Shown: positions 25,028-34,080 of the stretch, piece by piece | Position numbering within the stretch: the stretch's first letter is position 1 | Layout: every line of letters starts with the position of its first letter | IMG/VR virus record: IMGVR_UViG_3300014059_000004 | DNA length: 64,000 bases | Direction: 5' to 3' (one strand) | Origin: a virus | The notes under the pieces: generated by a model | The model's input: the letters and a program-made list of their open reading frames with translations, nothing else | What the model was told of the DNA's origin: nothing | Databases searched by the model: none | Made by a program: the position numbers and the translations under genes

Positions 25028-25074
25028 AGATCATTGTACAATGAACTTGGTACGAAGTACAGTATCATTTACAG

Positions 25075-25455
25075 ATGGAATTTGACTTGGGTGAGGGAGC
25101 TCACCATGTGCACGTTGGTGGTGTTAATGCAGAGATGGAGTTGCCGGCAAGCTTTAACGTGCTACCGCGTGAAGATCAAGTGCAAGCTCAGCTAGCAGCT
25201 GATTTTTTCCAACGCATCGTTGCTGCAGAGCGCGAGGGTTCTAAGGTTACGCTAGTCACAGCGATCGGTGAGATCTTTGTTCTTCGTGCTGGTGATGCAG
25301 GTCTGCCAGATGGTGATGTGCACCCTGGTGATTTCGGTAAGAAGATCACTGTCGGTGACTTTGAAGCATTGTCAAGTTGGATTCTTGCGTTGAGCACCAA
25401 GATAATCAGCGTTGTTGACTTATTTAGTAGATGCGAATCAACGTCGAAAGAGTAA
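25075..25455 (+). CDS. possible hypothetical protein
   Basis: 126 aa ORF, no motif; weak. Confidence 0.3.
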   Translation: MEFDLGEGAHHVHVGGVNAEMELPASFNVLPREDQVQAQLAADFFQRIVAAEREGSKVTLVTAIGEIFVLRAGDAGLPDGDVHPGDFGKKITVGDFEALSSWILALSTKIISVVDLFSRCESTSKE

Positions 25456-25667
25456 GGCAGATCGTTCGTGAAGAGATCGAAAGAATGATGAATCGATCTG
25501 CTGGGATGTTCGGCGGTGGAGGTATAAGCAGGTCAGACAATGGTGTCGTGCCTCCACCTCCAGGATTGGGCAGTCCGAGCGAAGAGATAGAGAATGAAAA
25601 ACAAGAACAAGATGAACCAAGCCAGTCAGTCGTCCGAGCAAACAACAGAGCGGGAAGACGCGATTGA
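25431..25667 (+). CDS. small protein, paralog of 29098..29499 (shared RVRQIVxEEI motif)
   Basis: MRINVERVRQIVREEIER... vs VKITIARVRQIVLEEILRE. Confidence 0.45.
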   Translation: MRINVERVRQIVREEIERMMNRSAGMFGGGGISRSDNGVVPPPPGLGSPSEEIENEKQEQDEPSQSVVRANNRAGRRD

Positions 25668-25866
25668 GCTTCAAGGCGTGGTGGATGAAGCTCTACCTGG
25701 GACGCTGTTTAGCGTCATCGTAGAAGGCGGCAATAAAGTTCTAGCCACGCTGTCTGGCAAGCTTCGCATCAACAGGATCAGGTTGATCCCAGGTGATCGT
25801 GTTACAGTGGCGGTTTCGCCCTATGACTGTTCTCGAGGGCGCGTATTGTGGCGACTCTTAACATAG
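25594..25866 (+). CDS. infA: translation initiation factor IF-1 homolog
   Basis: EDAIELQGVVDEALPGTLFSVIVEGGNKVLATLSGKLRINRIRLIPGDRVTVAVSPYDCSRGRVLWR aligns over full length with bacterial IF-1 (S1-like OB fold). Confidence 0.75.
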   Translation: MKNKNKMNQASQSSEQTTEREDAIELQGVVDEALPGTLFSVIVEGGNKVLATLSGKLRINRIRLIPGDRVTVAVSPYDCSRGRVLWRLLT

Positions 25867-25877
25867 ATTTCAACTAC

Positions 25878-31319: not shown

Positions 31320-31334
31320 CTTAATCCTATTGTA

Positions 31335-34019
31335 TCATGCCGCGGCGCACAAATGCACACAGGGACCGACCCGTAGGCCAGTCCCTGTTCGCTGTTGAGC
31401 GTTAACTCTGCGTAAGCCCTGGAGGGTCTTCGCGGAAGTCTTGCCGTTTCCACCGACTGCGGCAGCGACTGCGGGGGCGACAGTGTCAAGCTGCTTGGCG
31501 AGAGCGGTGCCCTCGAGAAGCTTCTTGAGAACGTCGACCACGCTGGTGCCACCCATGATGCTGAGGGGTGCCATCGATGCAGCAACCTTCTCGAGCATGT
31601 GACGCTCGCTGAATGCCTGAAGCGCAGCGACCAGATCCGGCGAGACAGCGTGTGCCTTGTCGACCAGCGCCTGCACCTCTGCACGGATGAGGTTGATCTT
31701 CACTTCCTGAGCCTTTGCATCGAGAGCAATCTGCAGCTCACGATCAACCTCGGTCTCGCGGCGAGTGACGACCGCGATCTCTGCACGAGACTTCTCAGCC
31801 TCAAGCTTCTTCGCAAGCGTCTCTGCCTCTGTCCGAGCGTTCGTCTCCAGGACGATGAGATCGAGCTCGCCTTTCTTCTTCGCAGTCTCGACCTGGAGCT
31901 CCATGATTGCCCGCTGCGTTTCAGCACGAGCAAGCTCGGTCTGGCGCTTCAGTTCCTCAGACTCCCTGACAAAATCGAGCTTCCTGCGTTCTGCAGCGAG
32001 GAAGAGCGTGTTCTGGATGACGTCCTTCTGCGCACCAGAAAGGAGGTTCTCCACTTCCTTGTTGAGCATCGAGACGTTGAGAACTTCAACATCGTAGATG
32101 CGCATGCCGTTCTCATCGAAAGCAGTTCCTGCCCGCTTTCCATCAGCACCAGCCTTTCCAAGAACAACGTCGCGGAGGATGTCCGTGCTGTTGCTGTAGA
32201 ATTCCTCGACCCCGAGCTTCTTCACTGCGTTGCGGCAGCGAGACCTCATGTGATCCGTCAAGAACTTGACGTAGTTGTCGACGGCGAACCACTTCGACTC
32301 GTCGCCTTCGAAGTCAACCCTGTAGCTGATCTTCAGCTGAAGCCTGACAAAGTCCTTTGTCTCCACCTCGACGATGTCAGAAACCTTGTTCGCCTTCGTC
32401 AGAAGGTAAACAGTCTTCAGCGGGTTGTCCATCGTCTTCGGCTTGCCTCGCGACAGAGTGATCACCTGCGGGTTCTCATCGTACTCCAGCATGTACGTTC
32501 CGGGACCCTGGACCACGCGTCGGTCACCGTTCTTGCGAACGAGAAGCATAGCGTAACCAGTCCACAGCGTGACGCTGACAGCACCATCGTATCGAGTGTT
32601 CAAGACGATGCTTCGCGGGGGCGTGTACTTCGTCTTGCGATCGAATGCATCACCCGGCAGGGCCTTCGAAGCACCCTTGATCATGACCTTTCGAGTCGTA
32701 TCGTTCGTTGCGATGGCACCGATCGCATCGTAGTCAGTGACACCGCGAGCTGCGGCAGCAGAAGCATACAGAGCGACTTCACCAGACGAAGCGCCAAAGA
32801 TGTCCTGGTCGTCGATCCCAAGGCGCGTTGCGTTGATCTCCAGAGCGTCCCTGTTTCCAGGGTAAAGCATCTCGCAGAGGTTCAGCGGCAGGCCGCGCTG
32901 GATGATGACTTCCTTCCTCGGATCGGGCAGAAAGATCTGCGGACCCTGGACGAGGTTGATGACGCCGGTCTCGCGGTTCAGCACGTAGCGTGCCTCACCA
33001 GTCGGGATAGCGATGCCGTAGTGGATCTCCTGCTCACCGTACTTGATGATGGCATGCTCTTCGCGAGGAAAGTAGATCGTCTGCTCACGGCCAGTGATGA
33101 AGAGCTCTTCACCAGCGAGGTGAACAGTTCCATCCTTCTCGGTGTAGTCAGCAATGACCCTGATGTGAATGCCCGATGCAGGCGTCAGCTCCTGAGCTCG
33201 GAACTTCTTCGCCTTTGCCTTCTCAGGGTTGCTCTTGATGGGAGCCTCCACGAACTTCTCAGTCGGACGAGGGAAGACAACGTCCGGACCGTGAACGTAG
33301 CGCTTGTTTCCGTTCTGATCGAGGAGCAAGCAGTACTCCAGTCGCTCCAGAGTGACAGCCTCGCGAACGTATCGTTCCTCACCGTTGACCTTCTCCGGCA
33401 CGACCTCGATACCAGTCGACGGGATGTAGAAGGAAACGTCCGTGCCGCGGATGACGAAGAGCTTGCCCATCGTCAGGTCCTTCTCGGACGGGATGTCGAT
33501 GTTGGCACGAGAGACGCCCTTCGTGGCAGTTCCCTCACCATCAGTCTGCGTCTTGATGACAGCCTTGCTCCAGTTCGCCCGGGCAGCCTCCTCATCGTAG
33601 ACTCGAACGAGCAAGTACTCGTTGCTGCGAAGGTTGTGACCCTGGATGACCTTTGCCATCTGCCCCGGCCACAGCGCGAACGATGCGGGACCAGAGATGT
33701 TGACCTTCTTGCCGATGCGGAGCGTCGGCGTCGTCAGCTTTCCAGAACCCGCAGGATGCTTCTCACCCTCAGCAGCGTTCTTCAGGATGATGTACCAGCC
33801 TTCAGGGGCGGTGTAGAAGAGCTGCGTTCCCTCGTTGAGGGACACAGGACGAAACCTCTTCTTCTGGTTGTCGAACAGAACGCACCTGTCAGTTCCAGCA
33901 AGGCTAGTCTTGAAAGGTCCGACGTAGCAATCGATGCTACCTTTCGTGGCATCGCTAACGAGCGCATACTCGTTGGGTGCAAGAATCAGATCACGCTCGT
34001 TACGGGTCTCTTCAGCCAT
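31335..34019 (-). CDS. Major Vault Protein (MVP) homolog
   Basis: N-term LILAPNEYALVSD...VGPFKTS like MVP IIRIPPYHYIHVLD...VGPKTY; repeat-domain matches (GEELFITGREQTIYFPREE); shoulder domain ETKDFVRLQLKISYRVDFE...FAVDNYVKF...SRCRNAV...FYSNSTDILRDVVLG like ETADHARLQLQLAYNWHFE...FSVPDFVGD...SRVRGAV...FHKNSARIIRTAVFG; long C-terminal coiled-coil cap-helix region; length about 895 aa close to eukaryotic MVP. Confidence 0.85.
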   Translation of the reverse strand: MAEETRNERDLILAPNEYALVSDATKGSIDCYVGPFKTSLAGTDRCVLFDNQKKRFRPVSLNEGTQLFYTAPEGWYIILKNAAEGEKHPAGSGKLTTPTLRIGKKVNISGPASFALWPGQMAKVIQGHNLRSNEYLLVRVYDEEAARANWSKAVIKTQTDGEGTATKGVSRANIDIPSEKDLTMGKLFVIRGTDVSFYIPSTGIEVVPEKVNGEERYVREAVTLERLEYCLLLDQNGNKRYVHGPDVVFPRPTEKFVEAPIKSNPEKAKAKKFRAQELTPASGIHIRVIADYTEKDGTVHLAGEELFITGREQTIYFPREEHAIIKYGEQEIHYGIAIPTGEARYVLNRETGVINLVQGPQIFLPDPRKEVIIQRGLPLNLCEMLYPGNRDALEINATRLGIDDQDIFGASSGEVALYASAAAARGVTDYDAIGAIATNDTTRKVMIKGASKALPGDAFDRKTKYTPPRSIVLNTRYDGAVSVTLWTGYAMLLVRKNGDRRVVQGPGTYMLEYDENPQVITLSRGKPKTMDNPLKTVYLLTKANKVSDIVEVETKDFVRLQLKISYRVDFEGDESKWFAVDNYVKFLTDHMRSRCRNAVKKLGVEEFYSNSTDILRDVVLGKAGADGKRAGTAFDENGMRIYDVEVLNVSMLNKEVENLLSGAQKDVIQNTLFLAAERRKLDFVRESEELKRQTELARAETQRAIMELQVETAKKKGELDLIVLETNARTEAETLAKKLEAEKSRAEIAVVTRRETEVDRELQIALDAKAQEVKINLIRAEVQALVDKAHAVSPDLVAALQAFSERHMLEKVAASMAPLSIMGGTSVVDVLKKLLEGTALAKQLDTVAPAVAAAVGGNGKTSAKTLQGLRRVNAQQRTGTGLRVGPCVHLCAAA

Positions 34020-34056
34020 TTCGTTTTTCCTCATTTTCTTTCCGTTTGTGCACTTC

Positions 34057-34080
34057 AGTGCCTTGCACGTGCAAGGCACT
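34057..34080. promoter_or_regulatory. 24-bp perfect palindrome AGTGCCTTGCACGTGCAAGGCACT upstream of the vault-protein gene
   Basis: Self-complementary; lies between end of array member 34095 and the MVP start. Confidence 0.5.

Follow-up and report, generated by a model that had tools for sequence, protein, structure and literature searches.

What is a gene for a vault protein doing in the middle of an array of small phage genes, and do the genes around it belong with it? The region concerned lies between 25.0 and 34.1 kb of the window (the whole stretch of viral DNA analysed, 64 kb in length). A sequence-only reading had described it as a separately regulated vault module that interrupts the array. 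All the genes on which that description drew (IF-1, the 286-, 710- and 254-aa genes and the MVP homologue) are present in the window, and the region is indeed distinct from the array. Comparison with related loci indicates that it belongs to the gene backbone conserved in a clade of uncultivated huge phages, interleaved with fast-turnover runs of small genes. The joint reading favoured here, to which we assign a probability of about 0.6, is that this backbone comprises two independent units, that a leader peptide shared by several products targets effectors, and that two long palindromes are non-conserved hairpins.

Unit 1: IF-1, a predicted kinase and their neighbours

Unit 1 (25.0–29.5 kb) consists of conserved p126–pA78–IF-1 on one strand and p286 on the other, followed by pB133; GroEL adjoins it. 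In the window, the following features are found:

25075..25455, plus strand: p126, a conserved protein with no assigned function, always adjoining pA78/IF-1 in relatives
25431..25667, plus strand: pA78, a small acidic low-complexity protein; residues 1–18 (25431–25484) are the leader MRINVERVRQIVREEIER
25594..25866, plus strand: IF-1 (infA), a translation initiation factor with about 19 extra aa at its N-terminus
25878..26693, minus strand: p286, protein-kinase-like, with N-terminal leader MLIRINELKELIRVAVLNE; 271 aa from the start at 26693
26770..28902, minus strand: p710, a large, lineage-specific protein whose N-terminal and central parts vary, with a hypervariable stretch at aa 245–360
28912..29067, minus strand: s51, a 51-aa ORF of doubtful status next to p710 on its upstream side, without homology support; its last codons hold a 20-bp palindrome
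29098..29499, plus strand: pB133, small and acidic, starting with GTG; leader VKITIARVRQIVLEEILRE at 29098–29151

Orthologues of p126 (24–31 % identity) occupy the same position in loci L004, L006 and L007, and the protein has no Pfam or PHROG match. IF-1 matches Pfam eIF-1a (7.7e-19) and TIGR00008 infA (83.8 bits vs a cutoff of 61, over residues 20–88), and its start is overlapped, out of frame, by the 3' end of pA78 in four lineages. Leader-bearing orthologues of pA78 are found in L004, L006, L007, L016 and L019. In pB133, a GGG/ASPPQP linker and the conserved motif ...HLR(D/E)P...GPVPP follow the leader, and about 105 aa are conserved; its orthologues in L004, L006 and L007 (37–41 % identity) and those also detected in L015, L019 and L021 all have the leader. 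The likeness between pA78 and pB133 is confined to the first 18 residues (12/18 identical) and each protein has its own orthologues, so the two are not paralogues over their full span. The pair had been taken for flanking paralogues; what they have in common is the N-terminal leader alone (M-K-I-x-L-x-x-L-R-x-L-I-R-E), which is also present on other proteins. The s51 frame is open in all six variants shown, though its last ~35 nt are replaced by a different allele, as read from the aligned sequences.

The 286-aa ORF spans 25878–26738 on the minus strand, but its homologues set the true start at 26693, and the ATG further upstream, at 26738, probably goes unused. The family includes more than 200 homologues (48–71 % identity), none of them assigned to a Pfam family over this domain, and K66, E85, D153, N161 and D173 are invariant (286-aa numbering). 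The AlphaFold model (pLDDT 87.7) has CtkA, PknG, CK2 and Csk as its best Foldseek matches, and p286 is thus predicted, from fold and motifs, to be a protein kinase. Aeromonas phage ST4 has a 1177-aa protein, with the annotation "ADP-ribosyltransferase", in which a p286-type domain is fused with a weak ADP-ribosyltransferase (ART) match.

The C-terminus of p710 (aa ~495–710, nt 26770–27420) is conserved and predicted, again from fold and motifs, to be a divergent R-S-E ART; in 42 diverse sequences, R, S-S-W and E-x-E show no or almost no variation. Its N-terminal region is lineage-specific and fast-evolving, and p710 appears to be a large recombining protein added to Unit 1 in the window's lineage. 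Neither p286 nor p710 is recognised by any Pfam, NCBIfam or PADLOC model. Two further enzymes are encoded outside the flagged interval:

14068..14577, plus strand: NUDIX hydrolase with the same leader (KLLKQLIREMLTD); Pfam NUDIX 2.4e-20, the domain beginning at residue 51
17411..18328, plus strand: ADP-ribosylglycohydrolase; Pfam ADP_ribosyl_GH 1.6e-33

The ADP-ribosylglycohydrolase is conserved in all close variants and may be the eraser that counters the p710 ART. The ART, ADP-ribosylglycohydrolase and NUDIX genes all lie within 17 kb of the MVP gene, a proximity whose meaning for MVP is suggestive and circumstantial.

Unit 2: the MVP homologue and p254

Unit 2 (30.5–34.1 kb) consists of the MVP homologue followed by a fast-evolving gene:

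31335..34019, minus strand: MVP homologue, with repeats, shoulder and cap-helix coiled coil
30555..31319, minus strand: p254, a fast-evolving, clade-specific MVP neighbour of no known fold

The MVP gene probably starts at the ATG at 34019, which is preceded by GAGGA. Its product matches MVP_shoulder (2e-30), Vault_3 and Band_7 in Pfam, and rat and human MVP in phmmer searches (2.5e-20). In L003, the stop lies 19 codons ahead of that of the window; dN/dS between the two genes is 0.013, and the MVP homologue is under strong purifying selection. Related loci in IMG/VR number 37, on contigs of up to 429 kb, and identity to the huge phages LR756500/501 is 45 %; phage MVPs have already been reported. 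This gene had been said to head a minus-strand transcription unit; judged by gene layout, it lies instead in a near-continuous minus-strand train, with one 75-nt gap upstream.

For p254, there is no Pfam or PDB match, and two close homologues only were found in 5.8 billion clusters. It is weakly but significantly similar to the 253-aa gene that immediately follows MVP in L007 and to a 240-aa gene in L004. Against L003, its nucleotide identity is 69–78 %, with a dN/dS of 0.27 and a dS of 0.65. Members of the family lie adjacent to MVP or within 2.7 kb of it, on the same strand, in six of the eight clade loci, and p254 appears, from these comparisons, to be the only recurrent neighbour of MVP, within the window's clade only. 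The link proposed between the 254-aa gene and the vault gene thus holds within one clade, but no gene family accompanies MVP universally across the 37 phage loci.

Backbone and small-gene runs

Between the two units lie four small minus-strand genes with a PGDLV-type N-terminal motif, only distantly related to the main array:

29381..29602, minus strand: small gene
29599..29787, minus strand: small gene
29762..30229, minus strand: p155, with syntenic orthologues in L004, L006 and L007
30258..30530, minus strand: p90

These four genes match the main-array HMM with E values of 0.14–0.9; when those at 23.7–25.0 kb are included, the range against the main-array profile is 0.0003–5. The homogeneous array begins at 34095. 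The array had been thought to be broken twice: the region is distinct, as claimed, but the genes between the supposed islands barely match the main-array profile. A profile of the window's array type has 22 matches in a near-identical contig and 0–1 in seven other clade loci, the small-gene runs of which have the PGDxV motif alone in common with the window array.

The order p107–GroEL…p126–pA78–IF-1 / p286 / pB133 / p155 recurs on a 218-kb contig (L006; p286 54 % identical to that of the window), which lacks p710 and has no MVP within 10 kb. Unit 1 gene order is also kept in L007, together with MVP and the 253-aa gene and without p710, and the order MVP…p254…p155…pB133…IF-1/pA78 is found again in several IMG/VR clade loci. 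The occurrence of Unit 1 gene order in distant relatives without a nearby MVP argues that the block is ancestral backbone, not an insertion. An insertion into the array, or a nucleus for it, had been proposed, but the same genes occur in the same order in relatives with different or near-absent small-gene runs. Since relatives have small-gene runs of their own around the backbone, "interleaved" may fit this history better than "array expanded later". Nor is there support for the 286- and 710-aa genes as members of a vault module: p286 keeps its synteny where MVP does not lie within 10 kb, and L004, L006 and L007 lack p710.

Palindromes

28925..28944, no strand: 20-bp perfect palindrome GAAGAGCTGATCAGCTCTTC in the spacer between the divergent genes p710 and pB133, 22 nt ahead of the p710 ATG
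34057..34080, no strand: 24-bp perfect palindrome AGTGCCTTGCACGTGCAAGGCACT, 14 nt past the stop of the upstream array gene (34095–34403) and 37 nt before the MVP ATG

The 24-bp element is exactly as originally described, and the 20-bp element is a perfect palindrome lying one base from the position first given for it (28924). With a third at 7784–7807, the 64-kb window contains two 24-bp perfect palindromes and one of 20 bp, for an expectation of ~0.06 of at least 20 bp (our own estimate, 64000 x 4^-10); perfect stems of at least 9 bp number 8, vs 1.9 in shuffles. No T-run follows the 20- or 24-bp palindrome, and the view that they are not rho-independent terminators holds. The claim that they are operators for dimeric regulators fares less well, dyad symmetry being its sole support. 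Each is unique in the window, with extra half-sites not above chance, and no regulator gene was recognised nearby. The 20-bp palindrome is present in two of six near-identical variants (the window and, with one mismatch, L013), the other four having unrelated sequence at the site. In the three relatives with an aligned upstream region, the 24-bp palindrome has two substitutions (L003), two substitutions (L013) or a 5-nt deletion (L010), whereas both flanks are 100 % conserved. As the palindromes are imperfect or absent in relatives that are 94–99 % identical, a conserved operator role is unsupported. Strain-specific regulation is compatible with this poor conservation.

The palindromes are best read as strain-specific hairpin-forming intergenic DNA or RNA, with possible effects on processing, stability or attenuation, rather than as conserved operators. 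More specific roles are tentative, and we place them somewhat short of even odds: RNase III-type processing sites, mRNA-stabilising elements, factor-dependent or phage-polymerase terminators or attenuators (situated between MVP or p710 and the gene upstream), or recombination-prone cruciforms at cassette borders. A hairpin with a 10-bp stem is predicted for the 24-bp palindrome in RNA (91-nt segment, MFE −19.8 kcal/mol) and one on either strand for the 20-bp palindrome, the 81–91-nt segments holding them having MFEs of −17 to −20 kcal/mol; z-scores are modest (−1.6 to −2.6), and there is no covariation support. Relatives vary at the central (loop) and outermost positions, the inner 8–9-bp stem being kept in L003 and L013, and those with 64–69 % identical MVPs carry other stem-loops upstream of MVP. 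The placement of the 24-bp element just beyond a stop codon and of the 20-bp element at the edge of a recombinant p710 allele block is also consistent with hairpins, as are the other, looped hairpins of the window at convergent gene ends. Against this, a zero-loop perfect palindrome exceeds the needs of a hairpin, and the T-run is absent.

The shared N-terminal leader

The leader is a basic amphipathic stretch of 14–18 residues, M-[KR]-I-x-[LV]-x-x-[LV]-R-x-[LI]-[IV]-R-E, that heads pA78, pB133, the kinase family, the NUDIX hydrolase at 14068 and many stand-alone ART-domain homologues in related phages; it is absent from some kinase homologues and from p710, the ART of the window phage. An HMM built from kinase-family N-termini alone matched pA78 (E 0.028), pB133, the NUDIX hydrolase and one more ORF among the 1867 candidate N-termini of the window. 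In six other loci, it also matched the orthologues of pA78 and pB133 (E 1e-7 to 1e-3), and of 149 ART-family representatives it picked up 17 with E<0.1 (best 2e-8).

By analogy, this leader may be a targeting propeptide for virion-delivered effectors, similar to the capsid-targeting sequence (CTS) of T4. As a modular propeptide, we infer, it would load tagged proteins into the prohead, with cleavage probably on the C-terminal side of the conserved Glu. Tagged enzymes would be ejected with the DNA and would modify host proteins or nucleotides early in infection, by phosphorylation, ADP-ribosylation and NUDIX hydrolysis; on the phage side, its own ADP-ribosylglycohydrolase, IF-1 and GroEL would be at work. 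Among the genes of the 64-kb window, none for virion, protease or capsid functions was found.

A general amphipathic helix unrelated to packaging, which would direct proteins to a membrane or a phage compartment, dock them to a shared hub such as the chaperonin or help them to oligomerise, is unlikely but deserves consideration. A flexible Gly/Pro/acidic linker comes after the motif, itself a basic amphipathic helix; the motif occurs on proteins of unrelated fold, and the tagged genes adjoin GroEL and IF-1, not recognisable head genes. However, the only precedents known to us for a shared N-terminal tag in phages are capsid-targeting propeptides. The invariant Glu following an aliphatic-x pair would suit a head-protease type of site, and the tagged kinase, ART and NUDIX enzymes have classic injected-effector activities (PMC5512222).

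The sequence-only reading as a whole, a vault module of MVP and the 254-, 286- and 710-aa proteins, controlled by dimeric regulators at the palindromes and inserted into or seeding the paralogue array, is highly improbable. The p254–MVP linkage inside the clade and two perfect dyads of 20 and 24 bp that far exceed chance, each 22–37 nt upstream of a large gene and without T-runs, speak for it. Against it stand p286 and its neighbours, syntenic where MVP is not nearby, the absence of p710 from most relatives, the lack of a constant MVP companion across the 37 loci, unique palindromes not kept among close variants, the continuous co-directional train around MVP, and the failure of Pfam, PHROG and NCBIfam-type profile searches to recognise a DNA-binding protein in the region.

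Comparison with known systems

Vaults are hollow cages that take up proteins via a dedicated binding domain (10.64898/2026.05.01.722283). The least probable of the readings makes the leader a peptide that loads cargo into a phage vault cage, in the manner of encapsulin targeting peptides or of the MINT domain of vPARP, with kinase, NUDIX and ART-type enzymes and small acidic proteins inside a vault-like compartment: leader genes do lie 2–8 kb from MVP in the window, L004, L007, L015, L019 and L021, but the tagged kinase, pA78 and pB133 occur on the 218-kb contig with no MVP within 10 kb, distant MVP clades are almost without leader matches (one, in L043), and, in pattern-based scans in which absence is no proof, the 257–270-kb IMG/VR kinase contigs are not among the 37 MVP contigs, nor the large MVP contigs among the kinase contigs.

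The preferred reading, a targeting propeptide for virion-delivered effectors, has precedents in other phages. Diverged head paralogues of SPN3US have identical N-termini, and the CTS propeptides of T4, of 10–20 residues, are carried by internal proteins and the ART Alt and removed by the prohead protease (PMC5694885; PMC9958956). Domains typical of effectors delivered by the virion include kinases and ARTs (PMC5512222). The window leader would be the analogue of the capsid-targeting sequence borne by Alt and the internal proteins of T4.

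Genomic setting

The window is treated here as a fragment of the genome of an uncultivated huge phage. It has no DNA-level match among deposited phages; in IMG/VR, an 81.6-kb contig (L003/L014) is 94 % identical to it, and a 42-kb contig (L004) encodes a major vault protein (MVP) that is 64 % identical. The genomes LR756500/501/503 ('uncultured phage', 462-735 kb) encode sequences 45 % identical to its vault-protein ORF. The genes of the window include GroEL, IF-1, DNA-repair genes, an RNA ligase and a tRNA-Leu, besides extended runs of genes for ~75-aa proteins. Every gene named in the sequence-only reading is present in the window, and what had been observed there, a gene array interrupted around a vault gene, was essentially right; its interpretation as a separately regulated vault module with operators is mostly unsupported. 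The main features are as follows.

14068-14577: NUDIX hydrolase, upstream of p710, carrying the leader (a shared N-terminal peptide of ~18 aa)
17411-18328: ADP-ribosylglycohydrolase, upstream of p710
25075-25455, plus strand: p126, small conserved protein
25431-25667, plus strand: pA78, small protein with the leader
25594-25866, plus strand: IF-1
25878-26693, minus strand: p286, kinase-like protein (predicted)
26770-28902, minus strand: p710, with a C-terminal ADP-ribosyltransferase (ART)-like domain
29098-29499, plus strand: pB133, small protein with the leader
29762-30229, minus strand: p155, small conserved protein
30555-31319, minus strand: p254, neighbour of the MVP gene
31335-34019, minus strand: MVP homologue
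55062-55144: tRNA-Leu(TAA), within the higher-G+C part of the window

The array consists of about 45 tandem genes of ~75 aa on the minus strand (34095-54375) with a common N-terminal PGDLV-type motif. This homogeneous array starts at 34095; the small genes of two further stretches, 23.7-25.0 kb and 29.4-30.5 kb, are only remotely related to it. A profile of the window-type array matches 22 times in the near-identical contig, against 0-1 times in each remaining locus of the clade, and the PGDxV motif is the sole feature that the small-gene runs of those loci have in common with it; such arrays thus turn over very fast. Beyond ~51 kb (51000-63000), where the array ends, the G+C content climbs from about 0.47-0.52 to 0.55-0.61. 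A 62-aa ORF (9224-9412), 56 % identical (E 7e-26) to the N-terminus of a 5'-3' exonuclease gene (10051-11244) located 640 nt downstream, is a truncated copy, the product of a partial duplication or a pseudogene.

The identity of the IF-1 gene (infA) is certain from its match to the equivalog model TIGR00008 (83.8 bits, trusted cutoff 61.15). In four lineages (window 25594-25667; L004 19749-19849; L006 11204-11295; L016 11794-11876), the last part of pA78 and the first part of IF-1 share 56-100 nt in different reading frames, IF-1 always being in the +1 frame. This overlap could correspond to translational coupling or to a frameshift fusion; the fusion was set aside, because the related locus L007 keeps pA78 without IF-1.

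The MVP homologue and its partner gene

On sequence evidence, the 914-aa ORF encodes an MVP homologue in which shoulder, repeats and cap helix are collinear with their counterparts in rat MVP. The shoulder domain is recognized by PF11978 at 105.7 bits (cutoff 25; E 2e-30; residues 548-656), and residues 500-824 align to residues 478-815 of rat MVP in phmmer (E 2.5e-20). The repeats score 33.3 bits with Vault_3 (cutoff 28.8) and 26.6 bits with the Vault repeat model, slightly below its cutoff of 27, and give weak phmmer alignments to rat MVP; the cap-helix coiled coil at the C-terminus is collinear with that of eukaryotic MVP. Translation is likely to start at the ATG at 34019, which lies behind a GAGGA motif, as indicated by both the homologues and this ribosome-binding site. 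With a dN/dS of 0.013 relative to L003, the gene is under strong purifying selection. The window ORF extends 19 codons beyond the stop of L003 (CAG vs TAG; 31335-31391), and the IF-1 stop is lost in L003, in which that ORF is extended; stop-codon positions vary among strains that are 94-99 % identical.

There are 37 MVP-related loci in IMG/VR, on contigs of up to 429 kb, and clustering of the neighbouring genes over these 37 loci revealed no family accompanying MVP across clades. In seven loci of a distant MVP clade (L035-L049), the region about 1-3 kb downstream of MVP encodes a protein of 265-273 aa that has a nucleotidyltransferase-like GS…DxD motif and is unrelated to p254.

The p254 gene lies 15 nt downstream of MVP. 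Its DNA is 69-78 % identical between close relatives amid a background of 92-100 %, with a dS of 0.65 and a dN/dS of 0.27 relative to L003. Its close homologues in a large protein database number only two, and it is weakly but significantly similar to two genes close to MVP in relatives, the one that follows it in L007 and one lying 2.7 kb upstream of it in L004; the family is found near MVP in six of the eight clade loci. A weak match to nanobody framework 3 (E 8e-4) was treated as chance, and it vanished with the family profile. The close variants of p710 are 80-86 % identical, with a dN/dS of 0.23 and mosaic alleles. The high dS and raised dN/dS of these genes suggest the import of diverged alleles together with faster protein evolution, a pattern to be expected of host-interaction genes. 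From these comparisons, p254 appears to be a fast-evolving, clade-specific partner gene of MVP.

Two predicted enzyme families that escape annotation models

Searches against PHROGs, Pfam, NCBIfam, PADLOC and PDB sequences gave nothing informative for p286, p710, p126 and pB133, or for p254 and its fold. The start of p286, placed by the N-termini of its homologues, is MLIRINELKELIR… at 26693. More than 200 homologues (48-71 % identity) were found on contigs of up to 291 kb; none is annotated, there is no Pfam family for the domain, and p286 matches none of the curated kinase models of Pfam and NCBIfam. Its confident AlphaFold model (pLDDT 87.7, pTM 0.83) has H. pylori CtkA as its best PDB match in Foldseek (5.7e-5), followed by PknG, CK2 and Csk; these leading matches are protein kinases or phosphotransferases of the kinase fold, with moderate TM-scores of ~0.46. 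Five residues, K66, E85, D153, N161 and D173, are invariant in 42 sequences and would fit, by their positions, the beta3 Lys, the alphaC Glu, the catalytic Asp and Asn and the metal-binding Asp of a kinase. The model thus predicts an enzyme with a protein-kinase-like fold. In cultured phages of ~90 kb, the p286-type domain sits within very large proteins; in Aeromonas phage ST4, it forms residues ~600-820 of a 1177-aa protein whose annotation is ADP-ribosyltransferase and whose C-terminus weakly matches ART toxins. This is the architecture of the proteins termed polyvalent and virion-delivered by Iyer et al. (2017; PMC5512222).

Only five full-length relatives of p710 were found (61-92 % identity). 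Its last ~200 residues constitute a domain for which an exhaustive profile search found 642 representatives at E<1e-3. This widespread domain occurs either alone (~200 aa) or as the C-terminus of highly dissimilar proteins. This domain matches no Pfam, NCBIfam, PADLOC or PDB profile, and 42 diverse members retain the motifs Y-R-G, S-S-W, G-L-Y and E-x-E, the R, W, E and E being invariant and the Ser nearly so. The corresponding catalytic residues of p710 are R585 (YRG), S626-S627-W628 and E679-Q-E681, and the predicted model of the domain (pLDDT 94.8) has the ART fold. We conclude that the C-terminus of p710 is a divergent R-S-E ADP-ribosyltransferase with a putative transferase activity. A comparison of the ST4 polyvalent ART with the p710 ART-like profile was not significant (hhalign). 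With the NUDIX hydrolase, the ADP-ribosylglycohydrolase and the ART of p710, three enzymes related to ADP-ribose are encoded within 15 kb of one another. ART-like proteins (642 representatives) and kinase-like proteins (>200) are therefore predicted enzyme families escaping current annotation models.

A shared N-terminal leader

The kinase family starts with the consensus M-[KR]-I-x-[LV]-x-x-[LV]-R-x-[LI]-I-R-E-x-[LI]-L-x-E. An HMM built from 18 kinase N-termini only was scanned against the 1867 possible N-termini of the window. Self-matches aside, it scored highest with an in-frame site at 10912, and pA78, pB133 and the NUDIX hydrolase were also among its best matches. Of 149 representatives of the ART family, 17 match it at E<0.1, one of them MKIRISELRSLIRE at 2e-8, and it finds the pA78/pB133 orthologues in L004, L006, L007, L015, L016, L019 and L021. 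The same short N-terminal peptide is, thus, common to unrelated folds, the kinase, ART, NUDIX, pA78 and pB133 families, in which it is followed by a Gly/Pro/acidic linker and then by unrelated domains. The ORFs at 25431 (pA78) and 29098 (pB133) had been described as paired paralogues; they are alike over 18 residues, 12 of which are identical, and the similarity stops after residue 18. Given the HMM and this pattern of matches, they are better seen as two distinct, conserved small acidic proteins bearing a modular leader. The site at 10912 lies in the 3' part of the exonuclease ORF (10912-11244), past the end of its Pfam domains, where the leader-like MKIKLRELKSMIRTIL occurs in frame; this may mark a gene of its own that carries the leader, or a start site within the exonuclease ORF.

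To our knowledge, the leader is undescribed, and we know of nothing in T4 that its sequence resembles; the resemblance to the T4 capsid-targeting sequence (CTS) would be one of logic, not of sequence. The closest precedent is the T4 CTS: a propeptide of 10-20 residues present on internal proteins and on the ART Alt, and cut by the prohead protease (PMC5694885). The second is the diverged SPN3US head paralogues gp53 and gp54, which have identical N-termini (PMC5694885, PMC9958956). We propose that the leader would act like a CTS, directing injected effectors into the particle and marking the site of their cleavage. It contains a conserved [IV]-R-E; the window has no prohead protease gene. Should the leader prove to be a packaging signal, it would define the set of proteins injected by a whole huge-phage clade and provide a portable tag for loading foreign proteins.

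Perfect palindromes

The sequence-only reading took two long perfect palindromes, upstream of p710 and of MVP, to be operators of dimeric regulators. The 24-bp palindrome is exactly at 34057; the 20-bp palindrome exists, at 28925-28944, not 28924. Both dyads are perfect, and the window contains three perfect palindromes of at least 20 bp, against an estimated ~0.06 expected in 64 kb, and eight perfect stems of at least 9 bp, against 1.9 in shuffles. The third palindrome (24 bp, 7784-7807, AATCTCAGGTTGCAACCTGAGATT) occurs, with a hairpin with an 11-bp stem (7432-7462), in a 1.1-kb stretch without convincing ORFs (7056-8214) upstream of the RNA ligase gene (8215-9237), for which there was no Rfam match.

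Beyond dyad symmetry, nothing favours operators. Each palindrome is single-copy in the window, and the half-sites of the 24-bp palindrome are not enriched. The half-site GAAGAGCTGA is enriched (22 vs 7.6), but most of its matches lie away from gene starts and the enrichment probably reflects codons for Glu-Glu-Leu. The comparison covered five additional close variants for the region upstream of p710 and three for that upstream of MVP. The 20-bp palindrome is present in two of six variants, the window and L013 (with one mismatch); the other four carry a different ~35-nt allele, part of a recombinant block reaching into the p710 N-terminus. The 24-bp palindrome has two substitutions each in L003 and L013, at the outermost pair and the centre, and a 5-nt deletion in L010, whereas its flanks (22 nt on the near side, 40 nt beyond) do not differ among the four sequences. 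Unrelated stem-loops of other kinds precede MVP in more distant relatives. Scans of the window for sigma-70 promoters, a type that may differ from that of the phage, and for intrinsic terminators gave fewer sites than shuffles and none at either palindrome. Each palindrome is 22 nt away from an ATG, but this coincidence of spacing was rejected as meaningless, since the homologues and the GAGGA motif place the MVP start at the second ATG (34019).

Both palindromes are predicted to fold into 8-10-bp hairpins, and neither is followed by a T-run, in agreement with the earlier view that they are not rho-independent terminators. A role as transcript hairpins, or as structure-prone DNA bordering cassettes, would fit these data slightly better than an operator role. 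Elsewhere, perfect 11-12-bp stems with 7-nt loops lie exactly at convergent-gene junctions (55811-55839 and 60348-60378, the latter with AAA/TTT flanks); unlike the loop-less palindromes, they look like bidirectional terminators.

Gene order in related loci

Gene order in related loci argues against the insertion of a vault module into the array. In L006, a 218-kb contig, the order is p155 / pB133 / kinase / IF-1–pA78–p126 … GroEL, with MVP absent within 10 kb, p710 absent, and a stand-alone 233-aa ART-domain protein elsewhere in the locus. In L007, small genes are followed by MVP, a 253-aa gene, p155, pB133, the kinase, pA78, p126 and GroEL, again with no p710. In HMM scans of the 37 MVP loci, p254, p155, pB133 and IF-1/pA78 were recovered close to MVP in a single clade, the one in which MVP identity is at least 58 %. 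Contigs of 257-270 kb with the kinase are not among the MVP contigs, although these scans were pattern-based and such absence is not proof. The p286 block is therefore syntenic without a nearby MVP, p710 can be missing, and no family tracks MVP across clades; the picture is that of a stable backbone interleaved with fast-changing small-gene runs and a lineage-specific p710 insertion.

A possible role for the phage vault

The function of vaults has been unclear since 1986. A 2026 preprint reports that, in human vaults, ADP-ribose is bound in the MVP shoulder, which binds NAD+/ADP-ribose, and that TEP1 has NADase activity inside the particles (10.64898/2026.05.01.722283). The ADP-ribosylation genes neighbouring the phage MVP echo this finding. 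MVP lies within 17 kb of the ART, glycohydrolase and NUDIX genes, a proximity that is suggestive; the linkage is not conserved. One speculative reading, to which we give a probability of about one in ten, is that phage MVP and p254 form a cage with NAD+/ADP-ribose-binding shoulders which, together with the ART, the ADP-ribosylglycohydrolase and the NUDIX hydrolase, would counter NAD+-based bacterial immunity as a nucleotide sponge or a protected compartment; in a variant of this reading, the leader would load enzymes into the cage. If true, the vault would gain a testable role in a prokaryotic virus. MVP is common in huge phages (37 IMG/VR loci) and under strong purifying selection, which makes these phages a simple prokaryotic setting for studies of cage function. 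The worthwhile leads are the leader on predicted effector enzymes, the two model-invisible enzyme families, and the pairing, in huge phages, of MVP with the fast-evolving p254.

Comparison with known systems

Bacterial MVP homologues were reported in 2019 (10.1101/872010), and a 2023 preprint reported phage MVPs for two gut phages (Santos et al., 10.1101/2023.11.10.566534). The window protein shares with them a full-length MVP-like architecture (repeats, a shoulder/SPFH-like domain and a C-terminal coiled coil) and, with the phage proteins, a tailed-phage-type genome. It differs from those phage MVPs in belonging to a huge-phage lineage (45 % identity to the 462-735 kb genomes LR756500/501) and in its clade-specific partner p254 and the ART, ADP-ribosylglycohydrolase and NUDIX genes within 17 kb, a context that may be new or already known. 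The window vault gene thus adds a member to an already known kind, although the abundance of MVP in huge phages seems under-appreciated.

Like the eukaryotic vault (MVP, PARP4, TEP1 and vault RNA), the window combines an MVP homologue bearing a shoulder domain with an ADP-ribosyltransferase encoded nearby. Unlike it, the window has no vault RNA, or any other family, in an Rfam scan of the 64 kb, and no TROVE/TEP1-like or H-Y-E PARP protein among the genes examined in the 64-kb window; its ART is of the R-S-E toxin type, as opposed to the H-Y-E type of PARPs, and is not conserved beside MVP. The p710-type domain differs from the R-S-E enzymes cholera/LT-A, pertussis S1, C3, Scabin, Rhs TreX and T4 Alt/ModA/ModB in escaping sequence models, in its serine motif (S-S-W, not S-T-S) and in lying C-terminal to highly variable N-terminal regions or standing alone with the leader.

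The p286 family resembles the atypical kinases of mobile elements, H. pylori CtkA and those of phage polyvalent proteins (PMC5512222), in retaining, within a kinase-like fold, the Lys, Glu, Asp, Asn and Asp of catalysis, in being phage-borne and in its fusion to an ART-annotated polyvalent-type protein in ST4. It departs from them in TM-scores of ~0.46, the D-x7-N spacing of the catalytic loop and a C-terminal half predicted as a helical bundle; p286 is, moreover, stand-alone, ~270 aa long and equipped with the leader, and may or may not belong to the family of Iyer et al. The leader genes do not adjoin head genes in the window, packaging and cleavage are proposed by analogy with the T4 CTS, and the ART of this phage, p710, lacks the leader. 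The leader shares with the T4 CTS and the SPN3US N-termini the arrangement of a short N-terminal peptide, with an aliphatic-x-Glu end, common to otherwise unrelated or diverged proteins that include host-modifying enzymes.
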